Of a DNA stretch of 64,000 bases, positions 27,861-64,000 are shown in pieces. Every line of letters begins with the position of its first letter. Positions within the stretch are counted from its first letter, which is position 1. The stretch is from Escherichia coli (GTDB lineage: Bacteria > Pseudomonadota > Gammaproteobacteria > Enterobacterales > Enterobacteriaceae). Position numbers and translations under genes: made by a program. The DNA is taken from assembly GCF_003790525.1 (NCBI RefSeq), contig NZ_CP033635.1; one strand, given 5' to 3'. The notes under the pieces are model-generated. The model saw nothing but the letters and a program-made list of their open reading frames with translations. It searched no databases and was not told where the DNA came from.

Positions 27861-27998
27861 AGGGGAGTATATGACACATAAAACAAAGGCGACCGGGGGC
27901 GGTCGCCAATGGGAAAACACTAAACATAAGCCCGAACATCATAGCGATTTGCTGGCTGGTGGGCAATGTGTCCAGTGTGGTGGCTTGCTGGTGGATTG

Positions 27999-28199: not shown

Positions 28200-28247
28200 C
28201 TTTAAAACAATGCGCCGCAGTACCTCACACCACGGCGCTGATAGTGA

Positions 28248-28427
28248 TTATTCTGATTCTTTGGCCTTGCGGCGCTGGCGGTATTCAACTTCTCGCTTTA
28301 ATGCTGCTGTTACAAACTGCCCTGTACTTTCACCAGGCATTTTTACCGCCTCAACATTGTTCATAACTTCATGCGGAACCCTTGCCGCAACTGTTTGTGA
28401 TTTTGCGTTTACTGCTTTTGTCGCCAT
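28248..28427 (-). CDS. Ribbon-helix-helix (CopG/Arc-like) DNA-binding protein, 59 aa
   Basis: Hand-translated (below the 60-aa track cutoff): MATKAVNAKSQTVAARVPHEVMNNVEAVKMPGESTGQFVTAALKREVEYRQRRKAKESE; palindromic operators lie just upstream. Confidence 0.5.
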   Translation of the reverse strand: MATKAVNAKSQTVAARVPHEVMNNVEAVKMPGESTGQFVTAALKREVEYRQRRKAKESE

Positions 28428-28477
28428 GTTGTGTACCCCTTACAAAAAACAAATGCAGTATGCAGGAAAAAAAATAA

Positions 28478-28530
28478 GTGTTCAACACTTGGCGTGTTTA
28501 ACACCTAGGCTTAAATTGGTGTTCAACACC
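28478..28530. promoter_or_regulatory. Three palindromic operator-like sites
   Basis: GTGTTCAACAC (28478-28488), GTGTTTAACAC (28495-28505), GGTGTTCAACACC (28518-28530) upstream of the RHH gene. Confidence 0.45.
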
Positions 28531-29571
28531 TTGTTGATGAAAGGTGCAGAAACGACGAAACCCCGCACTGTTGGAGCAGTAACGGGGCTTCTAACCACCA
28601 ACGATAGAAAGCGTATCGAGGTAGCTATGTTAAATCATACCACACACCCGCAAGGGCGGGACCCGCACAACCTGAATAAATACATCTGGCGTTTTATCGC
28701 CCTGAGCACAGCACAACCACGCGTTATTACCATCGGGGCCACCAGCGAACAGGAAGCCCGCCAGCAATCCCCGACTGGCTGGGTGATGGTATTGGCCTCC
28801 AGATTTCATCATCGCTGTTTGTTTTTTGTCTGTCTCTCCTCGGGGTATGGGGTTGTGCCGTTCCAGCGTATGCGGGGCCGTTCACTGATGAAGCGCTCAA
28901 GCGGGAAATTATCGGATGGCGCGGGGGGCCGTACCCGTCGTTCCCGCCTCCGCTGGCGTACCACGCTGGCTTCGGTAATTTCCCCTGATTCGTTTATTTT
29001 CATAAAGAGTTACCTCCGTGCTCATCTGCTCTGGCGTTTTCTGTTTCTGATGAAGACTTACAGCGGTAGCGGCGTATCTTATCTTAAGATTTGGTTTAAT
29101 TTCTCGTGTCTGGCTTTAATGACGGCGCGTAATAATATCTGTCGCTGCTTTGTGTTTACGTCCAGAACTGTGGGGGATAATATGGATTTGTTCATGGTGC
29201 TCACCTGTAATGCATTGCGTCGTGATGCCTCATATCACGGCGGCGGTTATCGTTTTGTTCGGATTCGTCCCCTGATGAAATCCTCAAGCGGAAAATGTTC
29301 AGGGCGAGGTAATTCAGGAGGGACAGGGTTATTACTCATGCGCTCACGTTCCCTTGCGGCGCGTGCAGCATTCAGCTTTTGCAGGAGCACATCAAACGGC
29401 ACCCCCTTATCATTCATGGTCCCCCCTGTATATCCGTTGTTAACTGATGGTTACAGGTGCATTTTTCGCACAAACTATTTAATCAACACATCCGACCACA
29501 TTATCAGAGAGCCGGAATATACAGGGGCAATAATCCCGCATTTGCTGGCCTACGCACAGCTTACCGCTGAT

Positions 29572-29859
29572 ATGGCACTGAATGAGGCCAAAGCCATCCT
29601 GATTGCTGATTGTGAATATGGGGTTATGCGTGATGATCGTTTTAATGCCCTGAAACAGGAATTTGATGGCACACCGGAAGATACAGATATTGCGCTGTTA
29701 TGTGTTGCTGACATGGTAAAAGCTGCATGTTTTTTACTGGAAACCGCCGAACATTCAGGAACGGGTAGCGATATTCTCAATATTGCGTCGGACTATGCTG
29801 AATATGTGGCAGAGGCGCGTTACAGAAGAAAATTCCAGGAGGTGGTTAGCCATGAATAA
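29572..29859 (+). CDS. Hypothetical protein (start uncertain; TTG at 29542 is an alternative)
   Basis: Only protein-like portion of the long stop-free frame; ends with an AGGAGG RBS for the next gene. Confidence 0.4.
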   Translation: MALNEAKAILIADCEYGVMRDDRFNALKQEFDGTPEDTDIALLCVADMVKAACFLLETAEHSGTGSDILNIASDYAEYVAEARYRRKFQEVVSHE

Positions 29860-30025
29860 TCATGAAGCGCACTTACCTGTAGTGCTTAATGTGCCATCTG
29901 ATTATACGGGGCGCGTTTTGATATTTCTGGATAAAGGGAAAGTGAAATCGCAATGCCGCCTTAGAAATAATGAGGTTATTGGTTCTCTGGCTTTTTTTCT
30001 GAAGCCTGTATTCGCGCCGGAATAA
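29851..30025 (+). CDS. Hypothetical small protein (57 aa)
   Basis: ATG overlaps the upstream stop (CATGAATAATC) with an AGGAGG SD 8 nt upstream. Confidence 0.4.
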
Positions 30026-30055
30026 AGCCGGAATCACTGACAGGAAAATAAAACC

Positions 30056-30355
30056 ATGAAAAAGAAAAATTCTGGCTTTACTGCCAGCGGCCTCGCTCGG
30101 CCTGAAATCCGTCCCGGCTATATTTTCCGTGATAACTACGGCGGTACGGTAACGATTAAAGGCGTGGCAGAACGGCGCATCACCTACCGCCATGAAGGTT
30201 ACGAATATGATTGCGTGATGCCTGTTTATCAGTTTGTGCGTGATTTTTCTCTTGTGCAGGCCGTACCGCGTAACGTGCCCACCAGCAGGGAGAAAGCACG
30301 CGCCAATATTCAGAAGATGAAAACCATGATTAACGGATTCAGGGGTAAAAAATGA
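30056..30355 (+). CDS. Hypothetical protein
   Basis: 99 aa ORF; 4-bp overlap with the primase start. Confidence 0.5.
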   Translation: MKKKNSGFTASGLARPEIRPGYIFRDNYGGTVTIKGVAERRITYRHEGYEYDCVMPVYQFVRDFSLVQAVPRNVPTSREKARANIQKMKTMINGFRGKK

Positions 30356-32100
30356 AACTGGCACCGAACGTAAAACTGCAGTCACGCGGCATAAAACACA
30401 AAGGAACTGAAGTCATTATTTTTGCGGGTAGTGATGCCTGGGCACACGCGAAACAATGGCAGGAACATGACGCGCGTATGGCCGGAGATAATGAGCCTCC
30501 TGTGTGGCTTGGGGAGCAGCAGTTATCCGAACTGGATAAGCTGCAAATTGTGCCGGAAGGCAGAAAATCCGTGCGTATATTCAGGGCCGGATATCTTGCG
30601 CCAGTAATGATAAAGGCGATTGGTCAGAAGCTGGCGGCGGCTGGCGTACAGGACGCAAATTTTTACCCCGAAGGAATGCACGGTCAGAAGTGTGAAAACT
30701 GGCGGCGTTATCTGAATGCTGAGCGTGAAAATATTGCTGCAGGGCTTACCATGCCGGAGCAGAAAAATACGCAACTGGCACAAATGGCAGACAGTGAGCG
30801 CGCACAGATGCTTGCTGGTCGATTTGATGGCGTTTGTGTGCATCCGGAAAGTGAAATCGTTCACGTATGGCGCGGCGGGGTATGGTGTCCGGTCAGCACA
30901 ATGGAACTGAGCCGCGAAATGGTGGCGATCTATTCAGAGCACAGGGCCACTTTCAGCAAGCGCGTAATCAGTAACGCCGTGGAAGCGTTAAAAGTTATTG
31001 CCGAACCAATGGGCGAGCCGTCCGGCGATTTGCTGCCGTTCGCCAATGGTGCGCTTGACCTGAAAACGGGGGAATTTTCCCCGCACACGCCGGAGAACTG
31101 GATCACCACGCACAACGGCATTGAGTACACGCCACCAGCACCTGGGGAGAACATCCGCGATAACGCGCCAAACTTTCATAAATGGCTTGAGCACGCAGCC
31201 GGAAAAGACCCGCGCAAGATGATGCGTATATGTGCCGCGCTGTACATGATTATGGCGAACCGGTACGACTGGCAGATGTTTATTGAGGCCACCGGAGACG
31301 GCGGGAGCGGTAAAAGTACATTCACACACATAGCCAGCCTTCTGGCAGGGAAACAGAACACGGTAAGTGCTGAGATGACATCGCTTGATGATGCTGGTGG
31401 GCGTGCGCAGGTTGTCGGGAGTCGTCTTATCGTCCTGGCAGACCAGCCGAAATATACAGGCGAAGGAACGGGCATCAAGAAAATCACGGGCGGTGACCCC
31501 GTGGAAATTAACCCGAAATACGAAAAGCGTTTCACGGCTGTAATCAGGGCGGTGGTGCTGGCGACCAACAATAACCCGATGATATTCACCGAACGGGCCG
31601 GAGGTGTGGCACGTCGTCGCGTGATTTTTCGTTTCGACAATATCGTCAGTGAGGCTGAAAAAGACAGGGAGCTACCGGAAAGGATTGCGGCTGAAATCCC
31701 CGTCATTATCCGCCGATTACTGGCGAACTTTGCAGACCCTGAAAAGGCGCGGGCTTTACTACTGGAACAGCGTGACGGTGATGAAGCACTGGCGATAAAG
31801 CAGCAAACGGATCCGGTTATTGAGTTTTGCCAGTTCCTGAATTTTCTGGAGGAAGCACGTGGCCTGATGATGGGTGGCGGTGGCGATTCCGTGAAGTACA
31901 CGACCAGAAACAGCCTGTACCGCGTCTATCTGGCGTTTATGGCATACGCAGGCAGGAGCAAACCGCTGAACGTGGCTGAGTTCAGCAAGGCCATGAAGCC
32001 AGCGGCGAAAGTTTACGGACATGAATATATAACGCGCAGGATTAAAGGGGTTACGCAAACCAACGTGACAACAACAGACGACTGCGACGCGTTTTTATAG
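30352..32100 (+). CDS. P4-family phage/plasmid primase-helicase-like replication protein
   Basis: 582 aa; C-terminal NTPase with Walker A GDGGSGKST and LADQP Walker B-like motif typical of the P4 alpha / D5 family. Confidence 0.8.
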   Translation: MKLAPNVKLQSRGIKHKGTEVIIFAGSDAWAHAKQWQEHDARMAGDNEPPVWLGEQQLSELDKLQIVPEGRKSVRIFRAGYLAPVMIKAIGQKLAAAGVQDANFYPEGMHGQKCENWRRYLNAERENIAAGLTMPEQKNTQLAQMADSERAQMLAGRFDGVCVHPESEIVHVWRGGVWCPVSTMELSREMVAIYSEHRATFSKRVISNAVEALKVIAEPMGEPSGDLLPFANGALDLKTGEFSPHTPENWITTHNGIEYTPPAPGENIRDNAPNFHKWLEHAAGKDPRKMMRICAALYMIMANRYDWQMFIEATGDGGSGKSTFTHIASLLAGKQNTVSAEMTSLDDAGGRAQVVGSRLIVLADQPKYTGEGTGIKKITGGDPVEINPKYEKRFTAVIRAVVLATNNNPMIFTERAGGVARRRVIFRFDNIVSEAEKDRELPERIAAEIPVIIRRLLANFADPEKARALLLEQRDGDEALAIKQQTDPVIEFCQFLNFLEEARGLMMGGGGDSVKYTTRNSLYRVYLAFMAYAGRSKPLNVAEFSKAMKPAAKVYGHEYITRRIKGVTQTNVTTTDDCDAFL

Positions 32101-34340: not shown

Positions 34341-34925
34341 GTGAGGGTTAACAAGAAAAAGCTGGCTGAGATTTTTGATGTTGATGTGCGGACTATATCC
34401 ACCTGGCAAAATCAGGGGCTGCCGCTGATATCAGGCGGCGGGAAAGGGAATGAAGCGATTTTTGATACGGGAAAAGCGATTGAGTGGTTCGCTCAGCGTG
34501 AGGCCGACATTGAAAATGAAAAACTTCGTAAGGAAGTCGACGATATGCGCGTGGCTGCTGAGTCGGATCTGCAGCCCGGTACGATTGATTACGAACGCTA
34601 CCGTCTCACAAAAGCACAGGCAGATGCGCAGGAACTTAAAAACGAGCGCGATCGCGGTGACGTGATTGATACAGAGTTTTGCATGTACGCGCTTTCAAAA
34701 CTGGCGAGACAGATTTCATCAATCATGGACAGCCTCCCGCTTACTATGCAAAGGAGCTTCCCACAGATGACCCCCGCCATGCTGGATGGCCTGAAAAAAG
34801 AAGTTGTCAGAGCCTGTAACGCATGCACAAAACTTGATGAAAACATCCCGCGAATGCTGTCCGATTATCTGATGGAAACTACCGGAAATGTGCCTGATAA
34901 GTTTCAGCCGGATAAAGACAAGTAA
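34341..34925 (+). CDS. Nu1-like small terminase subunit homologue (candidate packaging-redirection factor)
   Basis: MRVNKKKLAEIFDVDVRTISTWQNQGLPLISGGGKGNEAIFD...ADIENEKLRKEV...LQPGTIDYERYRLTKAQADAQELKN closely parallels lambda Nu1; GTG start. Confidence 0.75.
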   Translation: MRVNKKKLAEIFDVDVRTISTWQNQGLPLISGGGKGNEAIFDTGKAIEWFAQREADIENEKLRKEVDDMRVAAESDLQPGTIDYERYRLTKAQADAQELKNERDRGDVIDTEFCMYALSKLARQISSIMDSLPLTMQRSFPQMTPAMLDGLKKEVVRACNACTKLDENIPRMLSDYLMETTGNVPDKFQPDKDK

Positions 34926-42711: not shown

Positions 42712-44478
42712 TTAAATCTCCTCCTGACGATGGGCCAGCAATGTGGCGAAAGGACCACCAGCCACGCTTAATTCCGCGTAACGTCCTTGCTCAATAATCT
42801 GACCATCCTGCATTACCCAAATGACATCCCAGTCAGCAAGATCTTCTAACTGGTGGGTGACCATTAACGTTGTCTGGCGCAGAGAGGCGGCATTAAGCGC
42901 CTCCATTACGCGCTGTTCACTGTGAGCATCAAGGCTGGCAGCGGGTTCATCCAACAGTAATAGCGAACAGGGATTCAGTAATGCTCGGGCCACCGCCACG
43001 CGCTGCGCCTGCCCCACGGAAAGGCGGGCAGCCTGGTCACCAACAGGCGTATCAACGCCTTGTGGCAGGAGCGGTAGAAACTCACTGACCCAGGCGTTAT
43101 CCAGTGCTGCTTGTAACTCGTGTTCGTTGGCATCAGGTCGCGCCAGTAGTACGTTATCCCGTAGTGTTGCTGCCGGTAATTGTGGGTTTTGCCCAACCCA
43201 GGAGAGATGTTTACGCCATGATTCTGGTGATAAATCGCGTAATTCTATCCCGTTGATTCGTAGCGATCCCTGATATGAGAGAAAACCAGAAAGCGCGTTC
43301 AGCAGTGAGCTTTTACCTGAACCGCTGCGACCAACCAACACTGCACGTTGGCCTGCTGGCAAAGTAAAGTTCAGCGGTCCGGCCAGCGTTTTACCTTCTG
43401 GTGATGTAATAAACAGCTCCTCGGCTTCAATGGTCACCGGATCGGTCGATGCTAATTCCGCCTCACCACGCTGCGGATGGGCAAGCGGGGTTTCCATAAA
43501 CGTTTTCAAACTGTCAGCTGCACCAACAGCCTGGGCTTTAGCATGATAAAACGTACCGAGATCGCGTAATGGCTGGAAAAACTCCGGCGCAAGGATCAGG
43601 GCCAGAAAACCCGCAGCCAGCGTCACGCCAGTATCATAGTGACCAAAATCCAGCTCGCCGAGATAGGAAAAACCAAAGTAGACCGCCACCAGAGCAATTG
43701 ACAGCGAGGTAAAAAATTCGAGAATGCCGGAGGATAAAAACGCCAGCCGTAGCACTTCCATTGTCCGTTGGCGGAAATCTTCCGAAGCAGAACGAATACT
43801 TTCAATTTCAGCTTCACCACGACCAAAAATACGCAATGTTTCCATGCCGCGCAGGCGATCGAGAAAATGCCCACTTAAGCGAGCAAGAGCGAGAAAGTTA
43901 CGTCGGTTAGCATCGGCAGCCCCCATTCCAACCAGCGCCATAAACAACGGAATTAACGGAGCAGTGCCCAGCAGAATGAGCGCCGCAGCCCAGTTAGAGG
44001 GGAAGATAGCCACCACAATCAGCAACGGCACCGACACTGCCAGCGCCATTTGCGGCAGGTAGCGTGCATAGTAATCATGCATATCGTCAATTTGCTCGAG
44101 TACCAGCGTCGCCCAGCTCCCCGCCGGTTTACCCTGAATCCACGCTGGCCCTGCTTGTTGCAGACGGTCGAGAACCTGACGGCGGATGGCAAAGCGGATA
44201 TGCTGCCCGGCGTGATAACCCACCCGTTCGCGTAACCAGACCACCCATGCGCGCAGTACAAAGGTCAGAACCAGTAACGTAAAGGGAAGCAGCAGGGCTT
44301 CACGGGGAATATTCTCCATAATCATATGTTGCAGAATTCGCGCCATGAACCAGGCCTGGGCAATGATCAATATGCCGCTCACAAAGCCCAGCAGACGAGA
44401 AATATTCAGCCAACGTTGGGAGATGACGCTTTGCTGTTTTAACCAGCGGGTTAACTCTTTTTGACGGGATTTATTCAT
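42712..44478 (-). CDS. cydD: Cysteine/glutathione ABC exporter subunit CydD
   Basis: 588 aa TMD plus ABC ATPase (GRSGSGKSS). Confidence 0.9.
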   Translation of the reverse strand: MNKSRQKELTRWLKQQSVISQRWLNISRLLGFVSGILIIAQAWFMARILQHMIMENIPREALLLPFTLLVLTFVLRAWVVWLRERVGYHAGQHIRFAIRRQVLDRLQQAGPAWIQGKPAGSWATLVLEQIDDMHDYYARYLPQMALAVSVPLLIVVAIFPSNWAAALILLGTAPLIPLFMALVGMGAADANRRNFLALARLSGHFLDRLRGMETLRIFGRGEAEIESIRSASEDFRQRTMEVLRLAFLSSGILEFFTSLSIALVAVYFGFSYLGELDFGHYDTGVTLAAGFLALILAPEFFQPLRDLGTFYHAKAQAVGAADSLKTFMETPLAHPQRGEAELASTDPVTIEAEELFITSPEGKTLAGPLNFTLPAGQRAVLVGRSGSGKSSLLNALSGFLSYQGSLRINGIELRDLSPESWRKHLSWVGQNPQLPAATLRDNVLLARPDANEHELQAALDNAWVSEFLPLLPQGVDTPVGDQAARLSVGQAQRVAVARALLNPCSLLLLDEPAASLDAHSEQRVMEALNAASLRQTTLMVTHQLEDLADWDVIWVMQDGQIIEQGRYAELSVAGGPFATLLAHRQEEI

Positions 44479-53042: not shown

Positions 53043-54356
<1,314 letters not shown>

Positions 54357-54376
54357 TACCCAATTTTTCTGAATCT

Positions 54377-54399
54377 AAAAAGCGCCTGCGGGCGCTTTT
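54377..54399 (+). terminator. serS terminator
   Basis: AAAAAGCGCCTGCGGGCGCTTTT. Confidence 0.65.
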
Positions 54400-54554
54400 G
54401 CATGGTACTTAACTATATGAAAATAAATGGATTTTATTTTCATGTGTCCAGATAATGTCCATCTTTGAAGAAAAAAGTCCACAATACTGACGTTGTGGGC
54501 TTTTCTTTTTCCTGATGGTGTCGTGCCGTCAGTGCAACGAACCAAAGGGAGGGG

Positions 54555-54782
54555 ATGTTGATGTTGTTTTCCCTTCGCACCAGCTTTAAAGCCACTCTTG
54601 TTAACGATGATGGTACGCCACGGATCACGGCCGAGGTGAGGAATGTGACACCTGATGATATCGGGAAGGTGGCGGAACTTGTCAGGGATGTTTTTGGTAC
54701 TCCTTCCGGTACCTGCCGTTCAGACTCTGCGGCCAGGGTTGACAGGCAGGATGTTAACGCCGGGTGGCTTACGCGCCTCTGA
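54555..54782 (+). CDS. Hypothetical small protein (75 aa), possible distant paralogue of the 71-aa array protein
   Basis: Strong SD AGGGAGGGG before ATG; convergent with hok-like copy 1; shares the M.LF..R...GTP pattern with the 57756 ORF. Confidence 0.4.
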   Translation: MLMLFSLRTSFKATLVNDDGTPRITAEVRNVTPDDIGKVAELVRDVFGTPSGTCRSDSAARVDRQDVNAGWLTRL

Positions 54783-54932
54783 ATGATGATGCCCTCACTG
54801 GTGAGGGTGACAAAAAAGCCCTCTCAATGGCGGGCAAATCTGGTTTTTTGTTTTGTCTCTACAGGGAAAGGGCGCCATATCGGCCCACCCCAACAACCGG
54901 ATAGCGGGGAATTTCTCCCCCGCTGCGGTTTC

Positions 54933-55073
54933 TTACGGTTTACACTGCAAGAACGCCGCAAAACGCGCTCCCCAGATATCAAAGCTGAATTCACATAACG
55001 AATCGTGGACCATCCAGATGACCAGGGTTATTGTCAGGCATAAAATGCCAACAATAATCGTTTTTTGCGGTAT
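54933..55073 (-). pseudogene. Hok/Gef-family toxin homologue, copy 1, start codon ATG->ATA
   Basis: Hand-translated ...LCLTITLVIWMVHDSLCEFSFDIWGARFAAFLQCKP; the position aligned to the ATG of copy 2 is ATA (TAT at 55071-55073 on the + strand); overlapping mok-like frame 54991..55173. Confidence 0.45.
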
Positions 55074-55314
55074 AGCGCTTGCTCCTTTTACAAAGAGGCG
55101 CTAACCTTCCACTTGTCACGGTAGGAAGGGTCAGGCCTCGGTTAAACACAGATGTTTTCCGGGGCCTTTCCACATCCGGCCTTCAGGTTTTCCCTCCGGC
55201 CATCAGCCGAAAGGCACCCGTTTCTTTTTGTTGCGGCAATATTTCAGGTGTCAGTTGGGGTGGGCTGTATCTTGTCTGATGCATAAAAAAATGCCCGCGC
55301 TTTGGCGGGCAAAA

Positions 55315-55496
55315 GACAAGACTTTTCGTTTGTATATCATGGATAATGGACACCCCTTCCTGTTGTCAGGTGGCAGGCACCCGTGGTTAATCTACTGTTT
55401 TTGTGCTTTTGTCTCAACCCTGAAGTTTTCATGGAAAATCAGGGTTGCTTCATATGTGCCAGGAAGGTGCGGCTATGATAACTGCCAAAAAAAGCC
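55315..55496 (-). ncRNA. Structured repeat element X1 (candidate sRNA, subtype a)
   Basis: ~170 bp bounded by hairpins; internal perfect stems (CAACCCTGA...TCAGGGTTG, CCTTCC...GGAAGG); no SD-led ORF. Confidence 0.3.
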
Positions 55497-55525
55497 CGCT
55501 TTCCGGCGGGCAAAACAGCAATGTG

Positions 55526-55683
55526 AGTTGTCTGTCATTGATACTGGACAGCCTTCCTGTTGTCAGGTGGAAGGTACCCGTGGTTAATCTACTGTCTTTG
55601 TGCTTTTGTCTCAACCCTGAAGTTTTCATGGAAAATCAGGGTTGCTTCATGTGAACCAGGAAGGTGAGGCGATGGTAACCGCC
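55526..55683 (-). ncRNA. Structured repeat element X2 (candidate sRNA, subtype b)
   Basis: Near-identical core to X1 with a different distal end (CAGCAATGTGAGTTGTCTGTCATTGATACTGG). Confidence 0.3.
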
Positions 55684-55930
55684 AAAAAAATGCCCGCTTT
55701 CCGGCGGGCAAAACAAGGAAGTACGGATCATGTATTATTGATTACGAGGCATTCCACCATGCCCACGTTTAATTTAGCTAGTTTTCATTTTATTCACAAT
55801 ATAGTTACTTATCATATTTATGAACAAAACTGTAATTTCATCTATAGGTATAAGTGATTTGCATTAACATGTTTCTTCTGTATTGCTGTTGGTTTTCCGA
55901 TGCTGATATTTATGATACATTCAGGGGCAA

Positions 55931-56135
55931 ATGAGGTTGTTCCACAGAAACGATGTTGAGATATTTCTGCTCCAGAAAGGACAAGCTAAAAAAATAAAGT
56001 GAAATTATGATATGTCAGGGATGTTCAGGCATGTCAGTGTCTTATTAATAAACTCGTTGCTGCTGTAATAACACCAAAAAAATCAAAGCATAATCTGCAT
56101 GTTGTTCCTGATGACCCAATAACCACAAAAGAATA
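55931..56135 (+). pseudogene. Degenerate copy of the small array protein gene (frameshift/early stop)
   Basis: Begins MRLFHRNDVEI... then stops after 23 aa; the downstream DNA still aligns with the intact copy through ...CTGATGACCC(A/C)ATAACCACAAAAGAATAA. Confidence 0.4.
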
Positions 56136-56164
56136 AAAAAATGCCCGCTTTCCGGCGGGCAAAA

Positions 56165-56333
56165 CAGCAATGTGAGTTGTCTGTCATTGATACTGGACAC
56201 CCTTCCTGTTGTCAGGTGGAAGGCACCCGTGGTTAATCTACTGTCTTTGTGCTTTTGGCTCAACCCTGAAGTTTTCATGGAAAATCAGGGCTGCTTTGTG
56301 TGCGCCAGGGAAGGCGCCTCGATGGCAGGCGCA
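56165..56333 (-). ncRNA. Structured repeat element X3 (subtype b)
   Basis: Copy of X2 between hairpins at 56134 and 56333. Confidence 0.3.
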
Positions 56334-56586
56334 AAAAAAATGCCCGTGCTTCGGCGGGCAAAATAAGGAAGTACAGGTTACATGTTATTGATAAAGTAGC
56401 ATTGCTCTGTCCGTCTTTAATCTAACGAGTTTTGAGTTTTTTCACAATATTGTTACCTGTCATGTTATAGATGAAACTGCAATTTCATCTATAGGTATAA
56501 ATGATTTGTATTAATGTGTGTCCACTGTTTGTCTGCTTTCTGGTTTTCAGTTGACTGTGTTTCTGATGAATTCAGGAGGTTGTCTT

Positions 56587-56685
56587 ATGAGGCTGTTCCA
56601 CAGAAACGATATTGAGATTGAACTGCATTTCTCCTCCGGTGAGGATAAGGTTAAATCATTGTTGATGAAAAAAACAAAGATTTAA
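56587..56685 (+). pseudogene. 3'-truncated copy of the small array protein gene
   Basis: MRLFHRNDIEIELHFSSGEDKVKSLLMKKTKI*; AGGAGG SD; identical to the intact copy for 23 codons, then diverges. Confidence 0.35.
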
Positions 56686-56937
56686 TTTATTGATATAAAG
56701 GATTTGTATCAGCGTATGTCCACGCAGTGACCACATTTTCGAGAGGTAGAGTAAGCCCGCAACATTGCGGGCTTTGTCTTATAGTCTGATCACTGTTTCA
56801 AGTCGGTGAGGACACCAAAAAGAAAACCCGCAGTTTTTATGCTGCGGGTTTGTTGTTCATGTCTGTGAGATAGGGTGCCTTATCGACCTTACCCTGGCAA
56901 CCGATTGACGGGGGATTGCTCCCCCGTCGCGGTTTCC

Positions 56938-57078
56938 TTACTTCTTACATTGTAAGAACGCCGCAAACTCCGCTCCCCAGAAGCTCATCCGTATTTCGCA
57001 CAGCGAACCGTGCAATATCCAGATGATGAGGATTGCCGTCACGCAGAACGTGATGGCCGTAAGCGATTTTTGCGACAT
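56938..57078 (-). CDS. Hok/Gef-family type I toxin homologue (46 aa), copy 2, intact
   Basis: Hand-translated MSQKSLTAITFCVTAILIIWILHGSLCEIRMSFWGAEFAAFLQCKK: TM helix plus SLCE(I/L)R and AAFLxC signature of Hok proteins; fully overlapped by a mok-like frame (56945..57178). Confidence 0.65.
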   Translation of the reverse strand: MSQKSLTAITFCVTAILIIWILHGSLCEIRMSFWGAEFAAFLQCKK

Positions 57079-57335
57079 AGCACTTGCTCCTTTTCCGGAG
57101 AGGCGCTAACCTTTCACTTGTCAAGGTAATGCGGTTAGGGCCTCGGTTAAACAGAAATGTTTTCCGGGGCCTTTCCACATCCGGCCTTCAGGTTTTCCCT
57201 CCGGCCATCAGCCGAAAGGCACCCGCGCGTAATTTAACTGTTTCTTTTTGTTGCGGCAATATTTCAGGTGTCAGTTGGGGTGGGCTGTATCTTGTCTGAT
57301 GCATAAAAAAATGCCCGCGCTTCGGCGGGCAAAAA

Positions 57336-57504
57336 ACAAGACTTTTCGTTTGTATATCATGGATAATGGACACCCTTCCTGTTGTCAGGGGGAGGTACCC
57401 GTAGCTAATCTACTCACTTTGTGCCCGCAGCTCAACCCTGAAGTTTTCATGGAAAATCAGGGCTGCTTTGTGTGCGCCAGGGAAGGCGCCTCGATGGCAG
57501 GCGC
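57336..57504 (-). ncRNA. Structured repeat element X4 (subtype a)
   Basis: Copy of X1 between hairpins at 57305 and 57505. Confidence 0.3.
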
Positions 57505-57755
57505 AAAAAAAATGCCCGCTCTCCGGCGGGCAAAACAATGATCTACGTCACATTATATTGATAACCGGGCATTCCTCCATGCCCATTTTTAATTTAGCCA
57601 TTTTTCATTTTGTTCACAATATAGTTATCTATCATATTCATGAATGAAATTATAATTTCATCTATAGGTATAAATGATTTGTGTTAATATGTTTCTCCTG
57701 TCTAACTGTTTTCTCATTTTTCGATACTAGTATTTCTGATATATTCAGGGGGCGT

Positions 57756-57971
57756 ATGAGATTGTTCCGAAGAAACGATATTGAGATTGAACTGCATTTC
57801 TCCTCCGGTGAGGATAAGGTTAAATCAATAAAGGTGAAACTAAGACATGCCCGGGATGTTCAGGCGTGTCAGTGTCTTATTGATGAACTCGTTGCTGCCG
57901 GAGGAACGCCAAAAAAACAAAAATATAATCTGCACGTGGTTCCTGATGACCCCATAACCACAAAAGAATAA
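57756..57971 (+). CDS. Small basic protein (71 aa), intact copy of the array family
   Basis: MRLFRRNDIEIELHFSSGEDKVKSIKVKLRHARDVQACQCLIDELVAAGGTPKKQKYNLHVVPDDPITTKE; GGGGG SD; AT-rich promoter-like region upstream; two degenerate paralogues nearby. Confidence 0.5.
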   Translation: MRLFRRNDIEIELHFSSGEDKVKSIKVKLRHARDVQACQCLIDELVAAGGTPKKQKYNLHVVPDDPITTKE

Positions 57972-58113
57972 AAAAATGCCCGCTTTCCGGCGGGCAAAAA
58001 ACAATTTAGGTCATATTTCATCATGGATAATTAAATACTTGCCCGTGGTTGCGGGAAAGTATCTGCCGTTAATCTACTTGCCTTATGATGTCCTCTCAAC
58101 CTGATTATTGTTC

Positions 58114-58365
58114 TTAAATATCAAGATTAATCTGAGTATTCCCCCTGTGAGATCCCGGAAAATCTTCCCACGGTATCCGCTCTGTACCCTGCGGCGACGG
58201 GGCGCGTTTTGATGTGAATTTGTTAAAACCCTCCAGTGTGGTAAAGCCGATCCCGCATTCGAGGTTATTGCACTGGTAGTACTTCAGGCGAACTGTGCCT
58301 GAATCATTTTCATTGCGACTGGTGCGGATACGTGCGGATGCACCGCATAGGGGACAACGGAACAT
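58114..58365 (-). CDS. ogr: Ogr/Delta-family zinc-finger late transcription activator
   Basis: MFRCPLCG...YYQCNNLECG: CxxC...CxxxxC spacing as in P2 Ogr. Confidence 0.8.
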   Translation of the reverse strand: MFRCPLCGASARIRTSRNENDSGTVRLKYYQCNNLECGIGFTTLEGFNKFTSKRAPSPQGTERIPWEDFPGSHRGNTQINLDI

Positions 58366-58408
58366 GGCTTCTCCTTATCTGGCTGAGTGGAGATGGCTCA
58401 TTTTAATT

Positions 58409-59500
58409 TTATCCGCCTGAATCTGCTATCCATTCGGGGATTTTCGCTTCCAGCTCCAGTTGTGTGGTGAAGCCGCTTTCATCTATGATGTGCTCCACCC
58501 TGGCAATAATCCAGTCCTGATTGTCCACCTCGCTTTTAAAACCTGTTACCCTGCCGTGCATTTCGGGATACAGGTCGGCACGACCCCGTGCCAGAGTGAT
58601 GGAGAATGCCGCTGCTCCCCGCTGTAACTCCTGCCACTTTGCCGCAGCTGCACGTCGTGCGGTTTCTTCATTCTGGTAAGTCCTGCGCAGAACGTAGACG
58701 TTCCCTTCCGCGCCTTCCATGTAATCACCCTCCCGGCTGCTGCTCTTCTCCTGTTTCTGTTTCCCGGCTTCCCTGCGTCGCTTCACGTTCACTTTTTTCT
58801 TGTGCCCGAACTTCAGATCGAGCCAGTGCGCCCGGACCCCCGTATACGCATCACGGTCAGCAATGCGAAAGCGGTGACTGTCGCCGCTGCTGCGGGTAAT
58901 GGCGAACGAAGGCAGGGCTCTTCCGTCCGGCCCGGTTCCGCCACCCGGCAGAATGAATAACAGGCTGCCGTTTTTTACGGTGGCAATCGCACCCAGCATT
59001 TCAGCCATGCGGGTCAGGAAGGATATATCGCTCTCTTCGGTCTGGTCAGCGTGGTCAATTTCGATATCCATGAGGATTTCGCTTATCTGTGTCTTCAGGC
59101 CGTAGCGGTGAGCGATGGCTGACACAACCTGTTTTACGGTCACGTCGTGCCAGGATACCTCCCGCCTCACGTTGAACTCTTCCCGAAAATCTGCGCTGCT
59201 GGCGGTGATGATCAGTTTATCTGGAGGTCCTTCCCACGCAACCTCATCAACGACGTAGGTGCCCTTGTTAACCAGTGATTCTCCTCGCCAGCCAATCATC
59301 ACTCTCAGGCGTGCGCCACGTGGTGGCAACTGTAACTGCCCGTCCGTATCGTCAAGGGTGAGGGTGACGCGGTCTGCCTCAAAGGCCCGGTTATCCGTCA
59401 GGGTCAGCGTCATGAGTCGCTCTGTGAGGTTTGCCAGTGTGTTGTTGTTGATGGTGATGTCGATATCCGGTGACGGAACGGTAACTGACAGCTCTTTCAT
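58409..59500 (-). CDS. P2 gpD-like tail protein (late control D)
   Basis: ...LTLTDNRAFEADRVTLTLDD...DISFLTRMAE...SGDSHRFRIADRDAYTGVRAHW... parallels P2 D; start at MKELSV with AGGAGAG SD. Confidence 0.8.
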   Translation of the reverse strand: MKELSVTVPSPDIDITINNNTLANLTERLMTLTLTDNRAFEADRVTLTLDDTDGQLQLPPRGARLRVMIGWRGESLVNKGTYVVDEVAWEGPPDKLIITASSADFREEFNVRREVSWHDVTVKQVVSAIAHRYGLKTQISEILMDIEIDHADQTEESDISFLTRMAEMLGAIATVKNGSLLFILPGGGTGPDGRALPSFAITRSSGDSHRFRIADRDAYTGVRAHWLDLKFGHKKKVNVKRRREAGKQKQEKSSSREGDYMEGAEGNVYVLRRTYQNEETARRAAAAKWQELQRGAAAFSITLARGRADLYPEMHGRVTGFKSEVDNQDWIIARVEHIIDESGFTTQLELEAKIPEWIADSGG

Positions 59501-59661
59501 GGTGTTCTCTCCTGGTGCGTTCTGTAATGGTTTCATGCACCGCAGCGGCGTTGAATGGCTGTTTTGTTGTCGCTGTCAGGAGACAACATCAAAGGGGTGA
59601 GATTACCGCGTGTGTGGGTAATGATTACGCAAAATCAACCAGCCAGACAAGGGTGAAACAT

Positions 59662-60945
59662 ATGAGTGAAACACGCTTTCATGGTGCGCGCGTAAGGGAA
59701 AGTACCGGCCTTGCCACCGCCATTAATGATGTGGATTCCAGTGTTATTGGTATTGTGGCTACGGCAGATGACGCGGATGAAACTCTGTTCCCGCTGAACA
59801 AACCCACACTGCTGACCCGCGTCAGTGATGTGCTGGGTAAGGCCGGCACAAAGGGGACGCTTTACAAATCGCTTAAGGCTGTCGCCGACCAGGTGAGCAC
59901 GAAGGTGATTGTGGTGCGCGTTCCTGATGCCAGTTCTCAGGGCGCCCCGGATACAGGAGTTACATCATTCGGTCATCTGGATCCTGAAGACAGGGCATTT
60001 TTTGGTATTGATGAGTCTGAAGATGCACATCCTGTATACCCACACAAAACGCAGGACCAGTATGTCATTGGTGGCACGGATGGCGACGGTAATTATACCG
60101 GTATGTATGCACTTCTGATAGCTGAACAGGATGATGCCATCGGTTACCGTCCGCGCATCATCGCAGCTCCCGGACTGGATACTGAAGCTGTCACAAAATC
60201 CCTGTGTGTAATTGCAGAAAAACTTCGCGCATTTGTCTACGCGGGCTGTCACAACTGCAAGAAGCCCGCCGATGCAATCAGCTACCGCGCCAGATTTAAC
60301 GAGCGCGAACTTATGCTGGTCTGGCCGGACTTCATCGCCCATAACCCGAAATCCGGCGCTAATGAGGTCTTCCCGGCTGTGGCGTACGCCTGCGGTTTAC
60401 GTGCACGTATTGACCACGAACAGGGCTGGCATAAATCGCTGTCCAACGTGCCGGTAAGAAATGTGCTGGGTATTTCCAGCCCGGTGTTCTGGTCCCTTCA
60501 GTCCGAAGACAGCGATGCCAACAATCTCAACAACAAGGAAATCACTACCATCATTTGCCGTAACGGTTTCCGCTTCTGGGGCAACCGTACGCCGGAAACG
60601 AAGGCGTATATCTTTGAGGTGTACACGCGAACCGCTCAGGTGCTGGCTGATTCCATTGCGGAAGCGCAGTTTGAAACGATTGATGCCCCGCTGACCCCTG
60701 CTAATGTGAAAGACGTGTTAAGCGCAATTCGCGCAAAACTGGATGCGCTGGTTACGTCAGGACGTCTCATTGGTGCGGAGTGCTGGTATGACGTGGTGGA
60801 TAACAGCACCACGGAACTTCGTCAGGGACGCGTGCGTATCCGCTACAAGTACACGCCCGTTCCGCCGCTTGAGGATATGGAACTTTACCAGGCGTTTACT
60901 GATGAATTCTTTGGTCCTGCATTTGCGACGCTTGGAGGTGCTTAA
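59662..60945 (+). CDS. Contractile tail sheath protein (P2 FI-like)
   Basis: ...ETLFPLNKP...KLRAF...RELMLVWPDF...RIDHEQGWHKSLSNV...GFRFWGNRT...YTRTAQVLAD...YTPVPPLE collinear with P2 FI. Confidence 0.85.
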   Translation: MSETRFHGARVRESTGLATAINDVDSSVIGIVATADDADETLFPLNKPTLLTRVSDVLGKAGTKGTLYKSLKAVADQVSTKVIVVRVPDASSQGAPDTGVTSFGHLDPEDRAFFGIDESEDAHPVYPHKTQDQYVIGGTDGDGNYTGMYALLIAEQDDAIGYRPRIIAAPGLDTEAVTKSLCVIAEKLRAFVYAGCHNCKKPADAISYRARFNERELMLVWPDFIAHNPKSGANEVFPAVAYACGLRARIDHEQGWHKSLSNVPVRNVLGISSPVFWSLQSEDSDANNLNNKEITTIICRNGFRFWGNRTPETKAYIFEVYTRTAQVLADSIAEAQFETIDAPLTPANVKDVLSAIRAKLDALVTSGRLIGAECWYDVVDNSTTELRQGRVRIRYKYTPVPPLEDMELYQAFTDEFFGPAFATLGGA

Positions 60946-61463
60946 TGGCCGTACCAAAAAATCTCAGGGTGTTCACGCTGTTTACTGACGGGGTGAACCA
61001 GATTGGCAGGGTGACCGGCTTCACGCCCCCCAAACTGACCCGTAAAACGGAAGCCTATCGCGGTGGTGGTATGGCCGGCGCGGTGAATATCGACCTTGGT
61101 CTGGATGACGGCGCGCTGGATGCGAGTTTCACCATGGGCGGGCCGACCCGCGAACTGTTCCTTAAGTACGGCGGCACGATCGACGGTACGCTGCTGCGCT
61201 TTGTCGGTGAGTACTACAACGATGAAGAGCAGAGCGACCTGTATGAAATTGAGCTTCGCGGCCGCGTGACGGAAATTGATACGGGGGAGGCAAAACAGGG
61301 TGAGGTCACGTCTCACACCTATGCGGTCAGGAGTACCTACTACAAACTCAGCATTAACGACCGTCCGGTGCTGGAGATTGATTTACTGAACCACATCGAA
61401 CGCAAGGACGGCAAAAACGTCTTCCCGGACCGCGTGCGCTCGGCGATTGGTCTTGGTGGTTAA
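60945..61463 (+). CDS. Tail tube protein (P2 FII-like)
   Basis: ...PPKLTRKTEAYRGGGMAGAVNIDLGLDDGALD...EIDTGEAKQGE...; ATG overlaps the FI stop (TAATG). Confidence 0.85.
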   Translation: MAVPKNLRVFTLFTDGVNQIGRVTGFTPPKLTRKTEAYRGGGMAGAVNIDLGLDDGALDASFTMGGPTRELFLKYGGTIDGTLLRFVGEYYNDEEQSDLYEIELRGRVTEIDTGEAKQGEVTSHTYAVRSTYYKLSINDRPVLEIDLLNHIERKDGKNVFPDRVRSAIGLGG

Positions 61464-61513
61464 TGTTTCCCACGGCGGCGCGCGGCGTCGCCCCCTGATT
61501 TGAGGTTTTATGC

Positions 61514-61876
61514 ATGAAAGAAAATCCGGTTGTTGCCCCTGTTACTGACGGTGCTGATGCGGCGGACGTGACCAGTGAGCGCGGCGTGACGCTGAAAACG
61601 CCCCTTGTGCTCGGTAACAAAAAAATCACGTATGTGGAAATCACGCCTGCTGTACAGCAGGCCGGTTCACTGCGCGGGCTGTCACTGCTTGACGTGCTGA
61701 ACATGAAAACGGACGCGATGTTTGAGTTACTCCCGCGCGTCACTTCGCCGCGACTGGACGAGGTTCTGCTTAAGCGCATGGGGTCCGCTGATTTTATTCA
61801 GCTGTGCGGGGTGGCGGTTAATTTTTTGGCCGGTCAGGACTCTGGCGGGAAGAGCGGGGCGGCGACGGCAGGCTGA
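61514..61876 (+). CDS. Tail assembly chaperone (P2 E-like); a -1 frameshift at TTTTTTG would give an E'-like product ending at 62040
   Basis: Position between tube and tape-measure genes; slippery TTTTTTG at 61823-61829; -1 frame open to 62040 (...ITVVPFEHIEDFVADIAVIFNWSPAEIF...). Confidence 0.65.
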   Translation: MKENPVVAPVTDGADAADVTSERGVTLKTPLVLGNKKITYVEITPAVQQAGSLRGLSLLDVLNMKTDAMFELLPRVTSPRLDEVLLKRMGSADFIQLCGVAVNFLAGQDSGGKSGAATAG

Positions 61877-62026
61877 TAACCGTCGTGCCCTTTGAGCACA
61901 TTGAAGACTTTGTGGCGGATATCGCCGTTATTTTCAACTGGTCTCCCGCTGAAATCTTCCTGATGGATCCCGGCGAGGTGGTCGCCTGGCGTGAGCGGGC
62001 GGCCCTTCGCAGCGGGAACGCAGAGC

Positions 62027-64000
62027 ATGAAAACGCTTGATATACGGGTCGCCTTCAGCGCTGTTGACAGGCTGACCCGTCCCACCGAAAACGCCCGTCG
62101 CATGATGGGCCAGCTTGGCGACTCCATACAGAGAACGCAGGGTGCGATCAAAAACCTGGAACGCTACGCCCGTTCATTTGATCGCGCCCGCGAGGCTGCA
62201 AACAAGGCCGGAAACGGCATTGTCAGGGCGCAACGCCAGTTAAGCGCACTTCAGCAAATTCAGCGCGCCGGAACCGTGCTGTCTGACAAACAGAAAAAGC
62301 TGATGAACGATTTGAGCCTCAAACTTGAGCGTCTCAATGAGGTCCGTGCGCGTGAAGTTCAGCGAATGCGCGAACTGGGTGGTGAGCTGCGGCGCCACGG
62401 TATTGCGCTTTCCGGCAGTGACAACACCATTCAACAGGCCATACGGCGAACACAGCAATACAACGACCAGCTGGAACGCGAACGGCAGGCGCTGGCACGT
62501 GTCACGCAGGCACGCCAGCAATATTCCCGTGCTCAGGAGACGGCGGGAAAACTTAAAACGGTCGGACTTACGGCGGTTGGTACGGCGGCGGCAGGCGGCT
62601 ATGCGGCCGGACGTTTCCTGCAACCGGCGGTCAGTTTTGGTAAGGAGATGTCACGCGTCCAGGCGCTGACCCGTATTGACAAAAACAGTCCGCAGTTTAA
62701 GGCGCTGCGCGAACAGGCCATTAAGCTGGGCTCTGAAACGCAGTTTACCGCCGGTGATGCTGCCAGCGGTCAGGCGTTCCTTGCCATGGCCGGCTTCACA
62801 CCACAGGCCATACAGGCGGCGCTACCCGGCGTGCTTGATCTGGCAATGGCTGCAGGGATGGACCTGGGACAGACTGCCGATATCAGTTCGAATATCCTCA
62901 CACAGTTTGGTCTGTCCGCTGACCAGATGGATCGCGTGGGTGACACGCTGGCCGCCACCTTCACACGAACCAATACGGATCTCCGTTCACTGGGTGAAAC
63001 CATGAAGTACACGGGTCCGGTTGCAGCTTCACTTGGCCTGTCCCTTGAACAGGCGGCAGCCATGACGGGTGTCCTTGGCAGTGTGGGGATCCGTGGAAGT
63101 GATGCAGGTACGGCGCTGCGTGCCAGTCTGTCACGTCTGGTTGATCCGCCGAAGGCCGCTGCAATGGCACTGAAAGAGCTTGGCGTGGAGACGCAGAATG
63201 CTTACGGGAACATGCGCCGGATGGAAAATATCCTGAATGAGCTGTACCAGGCCACCCGAAAATACGGTAATGCCGCGCAGGTCTCCTTTTTCAGGGCTAT
63301 TGCCGGGCAGGAGTCCTATGTTTCCCTGATGAATCTTGTCACTGCGGCGGGGGAAAATAATCTTCCCCGTCTTACGCAGGAGATTGAACTGGCCACCGGG
63401 GAACTTAATCACACTGCCCGTGTTATGGCTGATAACCTGGACGGTGACCTGAAATCACTGAACAGCGCATGGGAAGGACTGCGTATCCGTGTCGCTGACC
63501 TCGTTGACGGGCCGCTGCGTTCTGTCACGCAGTCGTTCACCCGGGTTATTGCGAAAGTCACCGCGCTGGCTCAGGCGCACCCTGAACTGACAAAACAACT
63601 GCTGATTGCCGGTGGTGTACTGCTGGCTGCGGTTGCGGCCATGGGGGCGCTGTCACTTGCCACTGGTGTGTTGATGGGGCCGCTGGCAAAACTGCGTCTT
63701 GGGTTTGCCCTGCTGACCGGCACATCCGGCCTCGGTCGTGCGCTGCCGTTACTGACGCAGCTGCGCGGCGTACTCGGTGGTCCGCTGGGCGGTATCGGTG
63801 GCTGGCGCGTGCTGTTTGTCGGTATCACCTCCGGTGCCGGACGGTTTGCTGCACTGCTGGGCGTAGTTGCGGGGCGGCTTCGTGGTGTGCAGGCGGGACT
63901 TGGCGCGCTGCGTGGTGGTCTGCTGGCTGCGTTCACTTCACCTGGCGGCGCACTGATTTCACTGGGGCGCGGTATCGGAATACTGGCGCTCAGACTGTCA
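62027..64000 (+). CDS. Tail tape-measure protein (P2 T-like); 3' end lies outside the window
   Basis: Hand-translated frame open from ATG 62027 to the window end (MKTLDIRVAFSAVDRL...); coiled-coil N-terminus and Gly/Ala-rich hydrophobic segments; absent from the ORF track because no stop lies in the window. Confidence 0.7.
   Translation, partial: MKTLDIRVAFSAVDRLTRPTENARRMMGQLGDSIQRTQGAIKNLERYARSFDRAREAANKAGNGIVRAQRQLSALQQIQRAGTVLSDKQKKLMNDLSLKLERLNEVRAREVQRMRELGGELRRHGIALSGSDNTIQQAIRRTQQYNDQLERERQALARVTQARQQYSRAQETAGKLKTVGLTAVGTAAAGGYAAGRFLQPAVSFGKEMSRVQALTRIDKNSPQFKALREQAIKLGSETQFTAGDAASGQAFLAMAGFTPQAIQAALPGVLDLAMAAGMDLGQTADISSNILTQFGLSADQMDRVGDTLAATFTRTNTDLRSLGETMKYTGPVAASLGLSLEQAAAMTGVLGSVGIRGSDAGTALRASLSRLVDPPKAAAMALKELGVETQNAYGNMRRMENILNELYQATRKYGNAAQVSFFRAIAGQESYVSLMNLVTAAGENNLPRLTQEIELATGELNHTARVMADNLDGDLKSLNSAWEGLRIRVADLVDGPLRSVTQSFTRVIAKVTALAQAHPELTKQLLIAGGVLLAAVAAMGALSLATGVLMGPLAKLRLGFALLTGTSGLGRALPLLTQLRGVLGGPLGGIGGWRVLFVGITSGAGRFAALLGVVAGRLRGVQAGLGALRGGLLAAFTSPGGALISLGRGIGILALRLS

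Follow-up and report, generated by a model that had tools for sequence, protein, structure and literature searches.

The window, that is the whole stretch of 64,000 nucleotides of Escherichia coli DNA analysed here (contig NZ_CP033635.1), ends in part of the tail module of a P2-like prophage, accompanied by a late-control gene. The following features were identified:

57977–57996, minus strand: terminator-like hairpin and T-run following ogr, where the D-ogr transcript may end
58114–58365, minus strand: ogr, Ogr/Delta-type zinc-finger late activator, 83 aa, CX2C-X24-CX4C (PHROGs transcriptional regulator phrog_603, 7.6e-14)
58409–59500, minus strand: D, gpD tail protein (VgrG/Pvc8-like), 363 aa with the ATG at 59500 as start
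59662–60945, plus strand: FI, tail sheath, 427 aa (phrog_23, 4.2e-117)
60945–61463, plus strand: FII, tail tube (phrog_55, 1.3e-54; TIGR01611, 118 bits against a cut-off of 102.75)
61514–61876, plus strand: E, tail assembly chaperone (phrog_103)
61822–61828, plus strand: slippery heptamer T-TTT-TTG in the E frame, candidate −1 frameshift site for E+E' as in P2
61885–62040, plus strand: E' segment, −1 frame relative to E, GpE family (phrog_1756)
62027–64000, plus strand: T, tape measure, truncated where the window ends (phrog_28, 2.2e-152)

Hence, ogr and D on one strand diverge from FI, FII, E/E' and T on the other, with the D|FI spacer between them. A preliminary description had placed ogr and D head-to-head with FI-FII-E-T, and PHROGs and tblastn recovered every one of these genes where it had been placed. 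The PHROGs match to D (tail phrog_52, 1.4e-147) was obtained with the ORF 58409–59536 on the minus strand, though the better start is at 59500, which is preceded at 7 nt by the Shine-Dalgarno sequence AGGAGA and is also the RefSeq start in an identical genome; the D|FI spacer is therefore 59501–59661 (161 bp). The tail ORFs are all intact, and tblastn identities to the P2 and P88 counterparts, respectively, are 46 and 76 % for D, 42 and 77 % for FI, 40 and 77 % for FII, 36 and 71 % for ogr, and 33 and 75 % for T. As the gene order rests on strong homology, it is not a matter of chance. With U, which was seen in the identical genome and not in the window, the P2-like (Peduoviridae) set of FI, FII, E/E', T, U, D and an Ogr/Delta activator is complete by PHROGs, NCBIfam and tblastn, and the position of T-TTT-TTG in the E frame, with E' in the −1 frame, predicts the E/E' frameshift.

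The canonical P2 order given in the preliminary description, a co-directional FI-FII-E/E'-T-U-D-ogr, matches the P2 reference annotation. Its remark that U is not found between T and D within the window is true but trivial, as the window ends inside T on the plus strand. In NZ_CP128970.1, which is 100 % identical, T ends at position 31039 of the region examined (L001) and U is the next gene (31051–31539, corresponding to about 65350–65838 in window numbering), a short way beyond the end of the window. Compared with P2, inversion affects the FI-U block alone; instead of lying downstream of G and reading in the same direction through to ogr, as in the F operon of P2 and 186, FI-U is opposite to both O..G and D-ogr.

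The module belongs to a complete P2-like prophage of 37.4 kb in the E. coli chromosome, where it has integrated into the serS terminator and is flanked by serS and dmsA. At the serS side the following were found:

54379–54399: prophage boundary and att core, the 3' half of the serS terminator hairpin, from comparison with the empty site of K-12
54400–58113: arm between att and ogr, with two to three diverged tandem hok-type modules and repeated GC hairpin terminators
56938–57078, minus strand: intact hok/gef family toxin gene, 46 aa, from the RefSeq annotation of the identical genome

The empty site of K-12 is divided between window positions 54286–54399 and positions 9128–8871 of a second region (L003), with an overlap of 21 bp, and the att core, CCTGCGGGCGCTTTT, is present again at the int-proximal end beside dmsA. 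ARAGORN detected no tRNA in 40000–64000 and the att site is not a tRNA. The map of the annotated identical genome, NZ_CP128970.1, includes head, lysis, baseplate, fibre, replication and cox/C/int genes, and the remaining parts of the P2 genome layout (Q,P divergent from O,N,M,L and so on; cox/C/int; the A replication endonuclease) are likewise found there. The window alone, holding tail genes and ogr only, might have been read as a headless tailocin or a cryptic tail-only remnant with its own regulator. However, R-type tailocins are defined by the lack of capsid, packaging and replication genes, and the neighbouring sequence in the identical genome has genes for portal, terminase, scaffold, capsid, lysis, baseplate and fibre proteins as well as a replication endonuclease, cox, C and an integrase, the whole being bounded by att repeats, which makes such a remnant extremely unlikely.

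Repeats in the arm fall into ten families (D1–D10). One end of P88 matches 56817–57260 at 90 % and 54842–55220 at 77 %, and the hok-type module, present in one copy in P88, is represented here two to three times, with a decayed hok copy at 54933–55013 in the ORF list. A search of 54000–64000 against Rfam returned nothing, including no match to a curated hok/sok RNA model, and no internal att core, sought as a trace of earlier tandem prophages, was present in 54400–58113. The duplicated and partly decayed hok modules could be taken as the mark of a decaying prophage scrambled or inverted recently in this strain, as could the flagging of T as partial by PGAP in NZ_CP128970.1. However, the full T ORF in that genome is uninterrupted (1103 aa), so the flag, which labels T a pseudogene, is an annotation artefact, and the late genes are all present and ordered as in the viable phage P88. 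Further evidence against a recent event comes from the distribution of the gene order.

The same order, with D and ogr divergent from FI, was found in P88, P884B11, phiSM, PhiR44_2, Chuche, 500465-2, phiT5282H, 3LV2017, ST16-OXA48phi5.4, KSP20 and many Kp48xx phages. These include ICTV-classified isolated phages of at least three Peduoviridae genera, namely Xuanwuvirus (P88 and phiSM), Novemvirus (Enterobacter phage phiT5282H) and Reginaelenavirus (Klebsiella phage 3LV2017), in addition to Serratia phage KSP20 and many Klebsiella phages. Of these, P88 and phiSM are known to be viable (PMC5285337, PMC6456863). Megablast of 58000–64000 against phages retrieved only the sheath/tube part at 77–78 %, and colinearity across D|FI was visible only with sensitive blastn. 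In the database records, ogr is unannotated in P88, and the phiSM entry gives D the name ogr and FI the name D. The order is also found in 26 complete E. coli genomes, assembled independently and each containing at least 80 % of 54300–64000, and in all 79 informative IMG/VR loci, with a single orientation throughout. Literature searches found no published description of the divergent gene order.

These comparisons bear on each of the ways in which the order might be an anomaly. An assembly mis-join at the D|FI spacer (59500–59662), for which the only argument is that the order differs from that of P2, is ruled out by assemblies made independently, as the junction is present at 99.7–100 % identity in the 26 genomes and also in IMG/VR contigs (93–100 % D identity) and in isolated phage genomes; we give it practically no weight. 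As the order is common to several genera at 61–78 % protein identity, the inversion must be ancient, and the block has no flanking inverted repeats, which together with the intact late genes leaves a recent strain-specific event very unlikely. A programmed segment of the Gin/Cin/Hin type that flips the FI-U block was considered, as a DNA invertase adjoins U in P88 and phiSM and as reversible inversions involving the tail-fibre gene gpH have been reported in P88-like prophages (preprint 10.1101/2022.05.07.487787). However, the invertase in those phages adjoins alternative tail-fibre (H/G) cassettes rather than FI-U, the prophage examined here has no invertase and only 70 nt between U and G, and just one orientation was seen in the 79 loci. 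A search for inverted repeats around the block, at the D|FI and U|G junctions, found short pairs at chance level only, and both an adjacent invertase and crossover repeats at the two ends, the hallmarks of a serine-invertase segment, are thus missing, making a switch of this kind scarcely credible.

The head-to-head order is therefore real and represents the usual, conserved gene arrangement in a known P2-like branch comprising P88 and its relatives. It is ordinary, neither a rearrangement nor an assembly error. Among the options raised in the preliminary description, a distinct P2-like lineage was the correct one, the order being fixed across the whole P88-like branch, whereas a rearranged prophage or another inversion junction found no support in view of the three or more genera, the 26 genomes, the 79 loci and the lack of both invertase and flanking inverted repeats. 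The suggestion of something unusual falls with P88 (NC_026014) and others, which have exactly the same arrangement.

The D|FI spacer and the region upstream of ogr contain the following candidate regulatory elements:

58400–58405, minus strand: TAAAAT, candidate −10 of an ogr-specific promoter, 35–40 nt upstream of the ogr ATG
59527–59532, minus strand: AACCAT, candidate −10 of the D-ogr late promoter, 44.5–49.5 nt from the dyad centre
59566–59587: perfect dyad GTTGTC-N10-GACAAC, centre 59576.5, with a TGT-N12-ACA core at 59568–59585, candidate Ogr site
59619–59625, plus strand: TAATGAT, candidate −10 of the FI-operon late promoter, 43–48 nt from the dyad centre

The dyad lies mid-way in the spacer and its sole exact twin in the prophage is in the O|P spacer. 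TGT-N12-ACA by itself is uninformative across the window (15 matches, 14.9 expected) and weight was therefore placed only on the extended dyad, its location and its conservation. Exact GTTGT-N12-ACAAC occurs twice in approximately 70 kb of prophage and flanks, in the D|FI and O|P spacers, where about 0.07 would be expected by chance (our own estimate, 70 kb / 4^10), and P88 has versions with one mismatch at both equivalent spacers. Across 70 distinct relatives, the left half-site never varies from TTGTTGT and the dyad centre is 81–88 nt from the FI ATG (the 37 nt printed for phiT5282H is a coordinate artefact, an upstream ATG having been annotated as the FI start), though this stack was anchored on the dyad and its members are related by descent, so that the conservation overstates the independent support. 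The right half is degenerate in many relatives (AGAAC, AGACC). In the same stack, −10-like blocks are conserved on the minus side at −49 to −44 and on the plus side (GAtgAT) at +43 to +48, but such hexamers are weak motifs that are easily met by chance, and the predicted D leader in P88-type relatives would be only about 14 nt. Scanning the D|FI spacer for the sigma-70 consensus gave no promoter, as expected if transcription is activator-dependent, yet this is not positive evidence. A box that the D|FI and O|P spacers share, AGGGGTGAG, was dropped as a promoter element as its offsets from the dyad differ between the two. The candidate ogr −10 has the geometry of the annotated P2 Pogr −10 and is conserved, as TAGAAT, both in P88 and in those relatives whose cargo insertion follows D. 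The dyads in both spacers match the geometry of P2 late promoters and dependence on Ogr is predicted. Literature searches turned up neither mapped transcription starts nor data on Ogr binding or expression for the P88-type lineage.

Because the convergent FI-U block separates D from the O..G operon, D-ogr needs a promoter of its own. In the P2 reference, one activator site serves pO and pP, with starts 55 and 56 nt from its centre. By analogy, a single symmetric Ogr-type site at the centre of the D|FI spacer may feed two divergent late promoters, one for FI-U and the other for D-ogr. ogr probably also keeps a weak sigma-70 promoter of its own, overlapping the D stop codon, and the two promoters together would allow early synthesis of Ogr followed by late positive feedback, as in P2. 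We are thus somewhat inclined to the view, drawn from sequence comparison, that inversion of FI-U put the symmetric Ogr site of pF beside D, such that one dyad drives both pF and a new pD and D-ogr is autoactivated by Ogr. No description of this dual-promoter scheme for P88-like phages was found in the literature. If correct, it would be a natural example of a symmetric activator site allowing an inversion to split an operon without loss of regulation, and the comparison yields a testable prediction, a bidirectional Ogr-dependent promoter. Overall, this part of the window very probably represents the end nearest attR of a 37.4-kb P88/Xuanwuvirus-like prophage, complete and apparently functional, in which FI-U is fixed in the opposite orientation and for which a shared Ogr site is proposed. 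The arrangement matters little for discovery, being the standard layout of a common, sequenced and ICTV-classified P2-like branch, but in annotation D divergent from FI should not be taken for a rearrangement, an inversion junction or a mis-assembly.

The closest known systems are P88 (Xuanwuvirus, Peduoviridae) and Citrobacter phage phiSM, in which order and orientation are identical genome-wide, with U, T, E', E, FII and FI reading away from D, ogr and hok, and which also have a dyad in each of the corresponding spacers, FI|D and P|O. The tail proteins are 62–84 % identical to theirs and blastn is colinear with P88 along the whole prophage, which is the Xuanwuvirus architecture. Genera are conventionally delimited by ICTV at 70 % or more genome-wide nucleotide similarity. 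About 56 % of the prophage aligns with P88, at 75.5 % identity, and the resulting one-way product of identity and coverage, approximately 42 % and thus below that value, is a rough blastn estimate against P88 alone and not a VIRIDIC figure. The prophage differs from P88 and phiSM in lacking the invertase and the alternative fibre cassette and in its duplicated hok modules, and from P88 in a longer tape measure (1103 versus 935 aa) and approximately 33 extra residues near positions 90–127 of FI.

P2 and 186 (Peduovirus and Eganvirus) have the same protein set (FI, FII, E/E' with the T-TTT-TTG frameshift, T, U, D and Ogr), ogr directly after D, TGT-N12-ACA-type dyads approximately 55 nt upstream of late promoters and an activator site shared between the divergent pP and pO. 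However, nucleotide similarity to P2 is only about 5 %, and in P2 a single co-directional operon runs from FI to D, with U overlapping D, whereas here FI-U is inverted; S and V overlap here, which would leave no room for an intergenic promoter of the P2 pV type. Finally, phiT5282H, 3LV2017 and KSP20 share the divergent D|FI junction and the FI-FII-E-T-U block, with G convergent on U, and the dyad is conserved in this group, 3LV2017 having GTTGTG-N10-CACAAC, a symmetric double change. They differ in hosts, immunity and cargo regions, and the junction is 67–71 % identical in nucleotide sequence.

The preliminary description placed ogr and D on the opposite strand to, and divergent from, FI-FII-E-T. 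This gene order is confirmed, and all of the named genes were recovered in the ORF list and by family searches:

58114-58365, minus strand, ogr, 83 aa with a CX2C-X24-CX4C motif
58409-59500, minus strand, D
59662-60945, plus strand, FI (tail sheath)
60945-61463, plus strand, FII
61514-61876, plus strand, E
61885-62040, plus strand, E', in the -1 frame
62027 to past the window end, plus strand, T (tape measure)

The D start at 59500 has an AGGAGA Shine-Dalgarno sequence and is the RefSeq start, though an alternative upstream ATG at 59536 is possible. The E/E' slippery heptamer is located at 61822-61828. Identities to the P2 and P88 proteins, respectively, are 46 and 76 % (D), 42 and 77 % (FI), 40 and 77 % (FII), 36 and 62 % (E), 49 and 84 % (E'), 33 and 75 % (T) and 36 and 71 % (ogr). 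FI is 427 aa here compared to 394 aa in P88, with ~33 additional residues around positions 90-127.

Window positions 54300-64000 are 100 % identical to E. coli NZ_CP128970.1, and among 5,426 complete E. coli genomes, 26 contain at least 80 % of this segment. The region forms one end of a complete 37,390-bp prophage in NZ_CP128970.1, with serS on one side and dmsA on the other, and extension supplied the remaining prophage genes and an att core at both ends. The order from serS is the hok arm, ogr and D (leftward), FI, FII, E, E', T and U (rightward), G, H, I, J, W, V, S, R, lysis, X, L, M, N and O (leftward), P and Q (rightward), then accessory genes, the replication endonuclease, cox, C and int, followed by dmsA. 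The presence of head, packaging, replication and integration genes excludes a tailocin or tail-only remnant. That U is missing between T and D is true of the window but does not represent a loss, because the window ends inside T and U is the next gene in NZ_CP128970.1. There, T is uninterrupted (27728-31039 in the numbering of that prophage region, L001), encodes 1103 aa and ends 12 nt ahead of U; its PGAP flag as a partial pseudogene was ruled out as the ORF is intact. T is 168 aa longer than its P88 counterpart, with a Pro/Val-rich, repetitive C-terminal part, and hence a longer tail is possible.

The att core, CCTGCGGGCGCTTTT, was defined by comparison with the empty K-12 site, and lies at 54379-54399 and again beside int (9108-9128 in L003, the int-proximal end next to dmsA). 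It corresponds to the 3' half of the rho-independent hairpin that terminates serS, and integration rebuilds this hairpin; no tRNA is involved. Outside the prophage, the window and NZ_CP128970.1 differ before ~39393, beside tRNA-Ser/infA, where NZ_CP128970.1 carries a CP4-like island (cbtA/yeeU, antirestriction genes); the match starts at 39393 (98.8 %).

Between att and ogr lies a 3.7-kb arm (54400-58113) of two to three diverged tandem copies of one module (63-99 % identity), whereas P88 carries a single copy; the arm may have arisen either by internal duplication or from the remains of earlier prophages. It includes an intact hok gene (56938-57078, minus strand), a decayed copy (54933-55013, minus strand) and numerous GC hairpins, nearly identical to one another, of the form AAAAAATGCCCGC..GCGGGCAAAA; an Rfam search of the arm matched no family. 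A terminator-like hairpin lies downstream of ogr at 57996-57977.

The divergent order is not an unusual feature. A sensitive blastn search with 58114-61463 gave a single colinear place each, covering ogr-D-spacer-FI-FII, in P88, P884B11, phiSM, PhiR44_2, Chuche, 500465-2, 520873 and 503458, together with Enterobacter phiT5282H, Klebsiella 3LV2017, ST16-OXA48phi5.4, the Kp48xx series and Serratia KSP20, and annotated maps confirmed it in three ICTV genera (Xuanwuvirus, Novemvirus and Reginaelenavirus). On the P88 RefSeq map, G and the invertase/fibre cassette are followed by U, T, E', E, FII and FI, all encoded on the strand opposite to D; ogr, found by tblastn directly after D (34476-34724 in the P88 genome, L002), is missing from the annotation. 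In the phiSM GenBank record (L006, 2294-4745), D carries the name ogr, and the sheath gene is labelled 'late control gene D'. Scanning IMG/VR with an alignment of gpD yielded 586 relatives, and among the best 80 loci (D 67-100 % identical) FI and D diverged, and ogr followed D, in all 79 that could be judged. P88 and phiSM form plaques or can be induced (PMC5285337; PMC6456863), so this order is compatible with function.

Hence, the suggestions of a rearranged prophage or an inversion junction are not supported. An assembly mis-join at D|FI is excluded by the same junction in independent assemblies, and a recent or strain-specific inversion by conservation across Peduoviridae genera. A programmed switch flipping the FI-U block is not supported either, as the prophage has no invertase, the U-G gap is 70 nt, the inverted repeats near the block do not exceed chance expectation, and the P88 invertase adjoins alternative tail-fibre cassettes. 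Since published and classified phage genomes already contain it, the arrangement is ordinary, though a literature search found no comment on the divergent D/FI order. Only the predicted bidirectional Ogr-dependent promoter is mildly new.

Because the convergent FI-U block cuts D off from the O..G operon, D needs its own late promoter, which, judged from the sequence, must lie inside the 161-bp spacer (59501-59661). A perfect dyad, GTTGTC-N10-GACAAC, spans 59566-59587 within this spacer (centre 59576.5). The exact form GTTGT-N12-ACAAC occurs only twice in ~70 kb of prophage and flanks, once here and once at L001 42985-43006, in the other divergent late spacer, O|P, and P88 has one-mismatch versions in the same two spacers. 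In a dyad-anchored stack of 70 distinct D|FI spacers from relatives, which are related by descent, the half-site TTGTTGT is invariant and the other half varies (ACAAC, AGAAC, AGACC); in 3LV2017 the variation is symmetric (GTTGTG...CACAAC). Between the dyad centre and the FI ATG there are 81-88 nt in the spacers of the IMG/VR relatives, the window, P88 and 3LV2017. The 37 nt obtained for phiT5282H reflects an upstream ATG annotated as the FI start; its FI-like start codon is in register with the other relatives and the spacing is not different. Conserved candidate -10 hexamers, both weak motifs, are GAtgAT on the FI side at +43 to +48 from the dyad (AATGAT, 59620-59625, in the window) and, on the D side, minus-strand GAcCAT or AACCAT at -44 to -49 (59532-59527), and the O|P spacer has matching candidates (CATCAT, minus strand, L001 42951-42946; TAAACT, 43040-43045). 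Start sites are predicted ~55-56 nt either side of the centre, the same geometry as in the P2 record, where a single activator site serves two promoters whose starts lie 56 nt (pP) and 55 nt (pO) from its centre. Taken together, the dyad, mirror hexamers and P2 geometry suggest that one candidate Ogr site would drive pF and pD in opposite directions.

A conserved but weak TAnAAT hexamer (TAAAAT, 58405-58400, minus strand) precedes the ogr ATG by 35-40 nt, as does the annotated -10 of Pogr in P2, and is kept in relatives with 1-3.5 kb of cargo directly after the D stop codon, making a separate ogr promoter probable. Ogr would then probably be expressed from this predicted promoter plus read-through from pD, and the read-through would probably create a positive feedback loop like that of P2. 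Between S and V there is a 4-nt overlap and no orf30-type insert (L001 36262-37454), which leaves no intergenic space for a pV promoter of the P2 type, and the late promoters of this lineage may instead be pP, pO, pF and pD.

The insertion point of the variable cargo, precisely after the D stop codon and ahead of the ogr promoter region, is shared by ~18 IMG/VR relatives (L023, L025, L028, L030-L033, L036, L037, L039, L041, L044, L047, L048, L051-L053 and L074). In L032 the cargo encodes an antiphage protein of the GapS6a family (135 bits against a cut-off of 90) adjoining a 932-aa ORF. The D-ogr gap looks like a defence/moron hotspot of the P88-like branch; in the window prophage this site is empty (43 nt).

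The earlier interpretation is thus partly supported: the anomaly disappears, since known P2-like phages have exactly this order, and the distinct P2-like lineage is upheld. The protein set, E/E' slippery heptamer and genome plan are those of a P2-like tail and late-control system. In the P2 reference record, FI-FII-E/E'-T-U-D-ogr is one co-directional operon, and the prophage, only 4.8 % similar to P2 by identity x coverage, departs from this canonical P2/186 order. The inversion relative to P2 is limited to the FI-U block, with D-ogr oriented as the O..G genes. The P88-type order, in contrast, is matched exactly. Colinearity with P88 extends along the full prophage, yet the two are only ~42 % similar by the same measure, and the prophage is therefore a distinct relative inside the P88-like branch, probably outside the genus Xuanwuvirus under the 70 % nucleotide similarity convention for genera.
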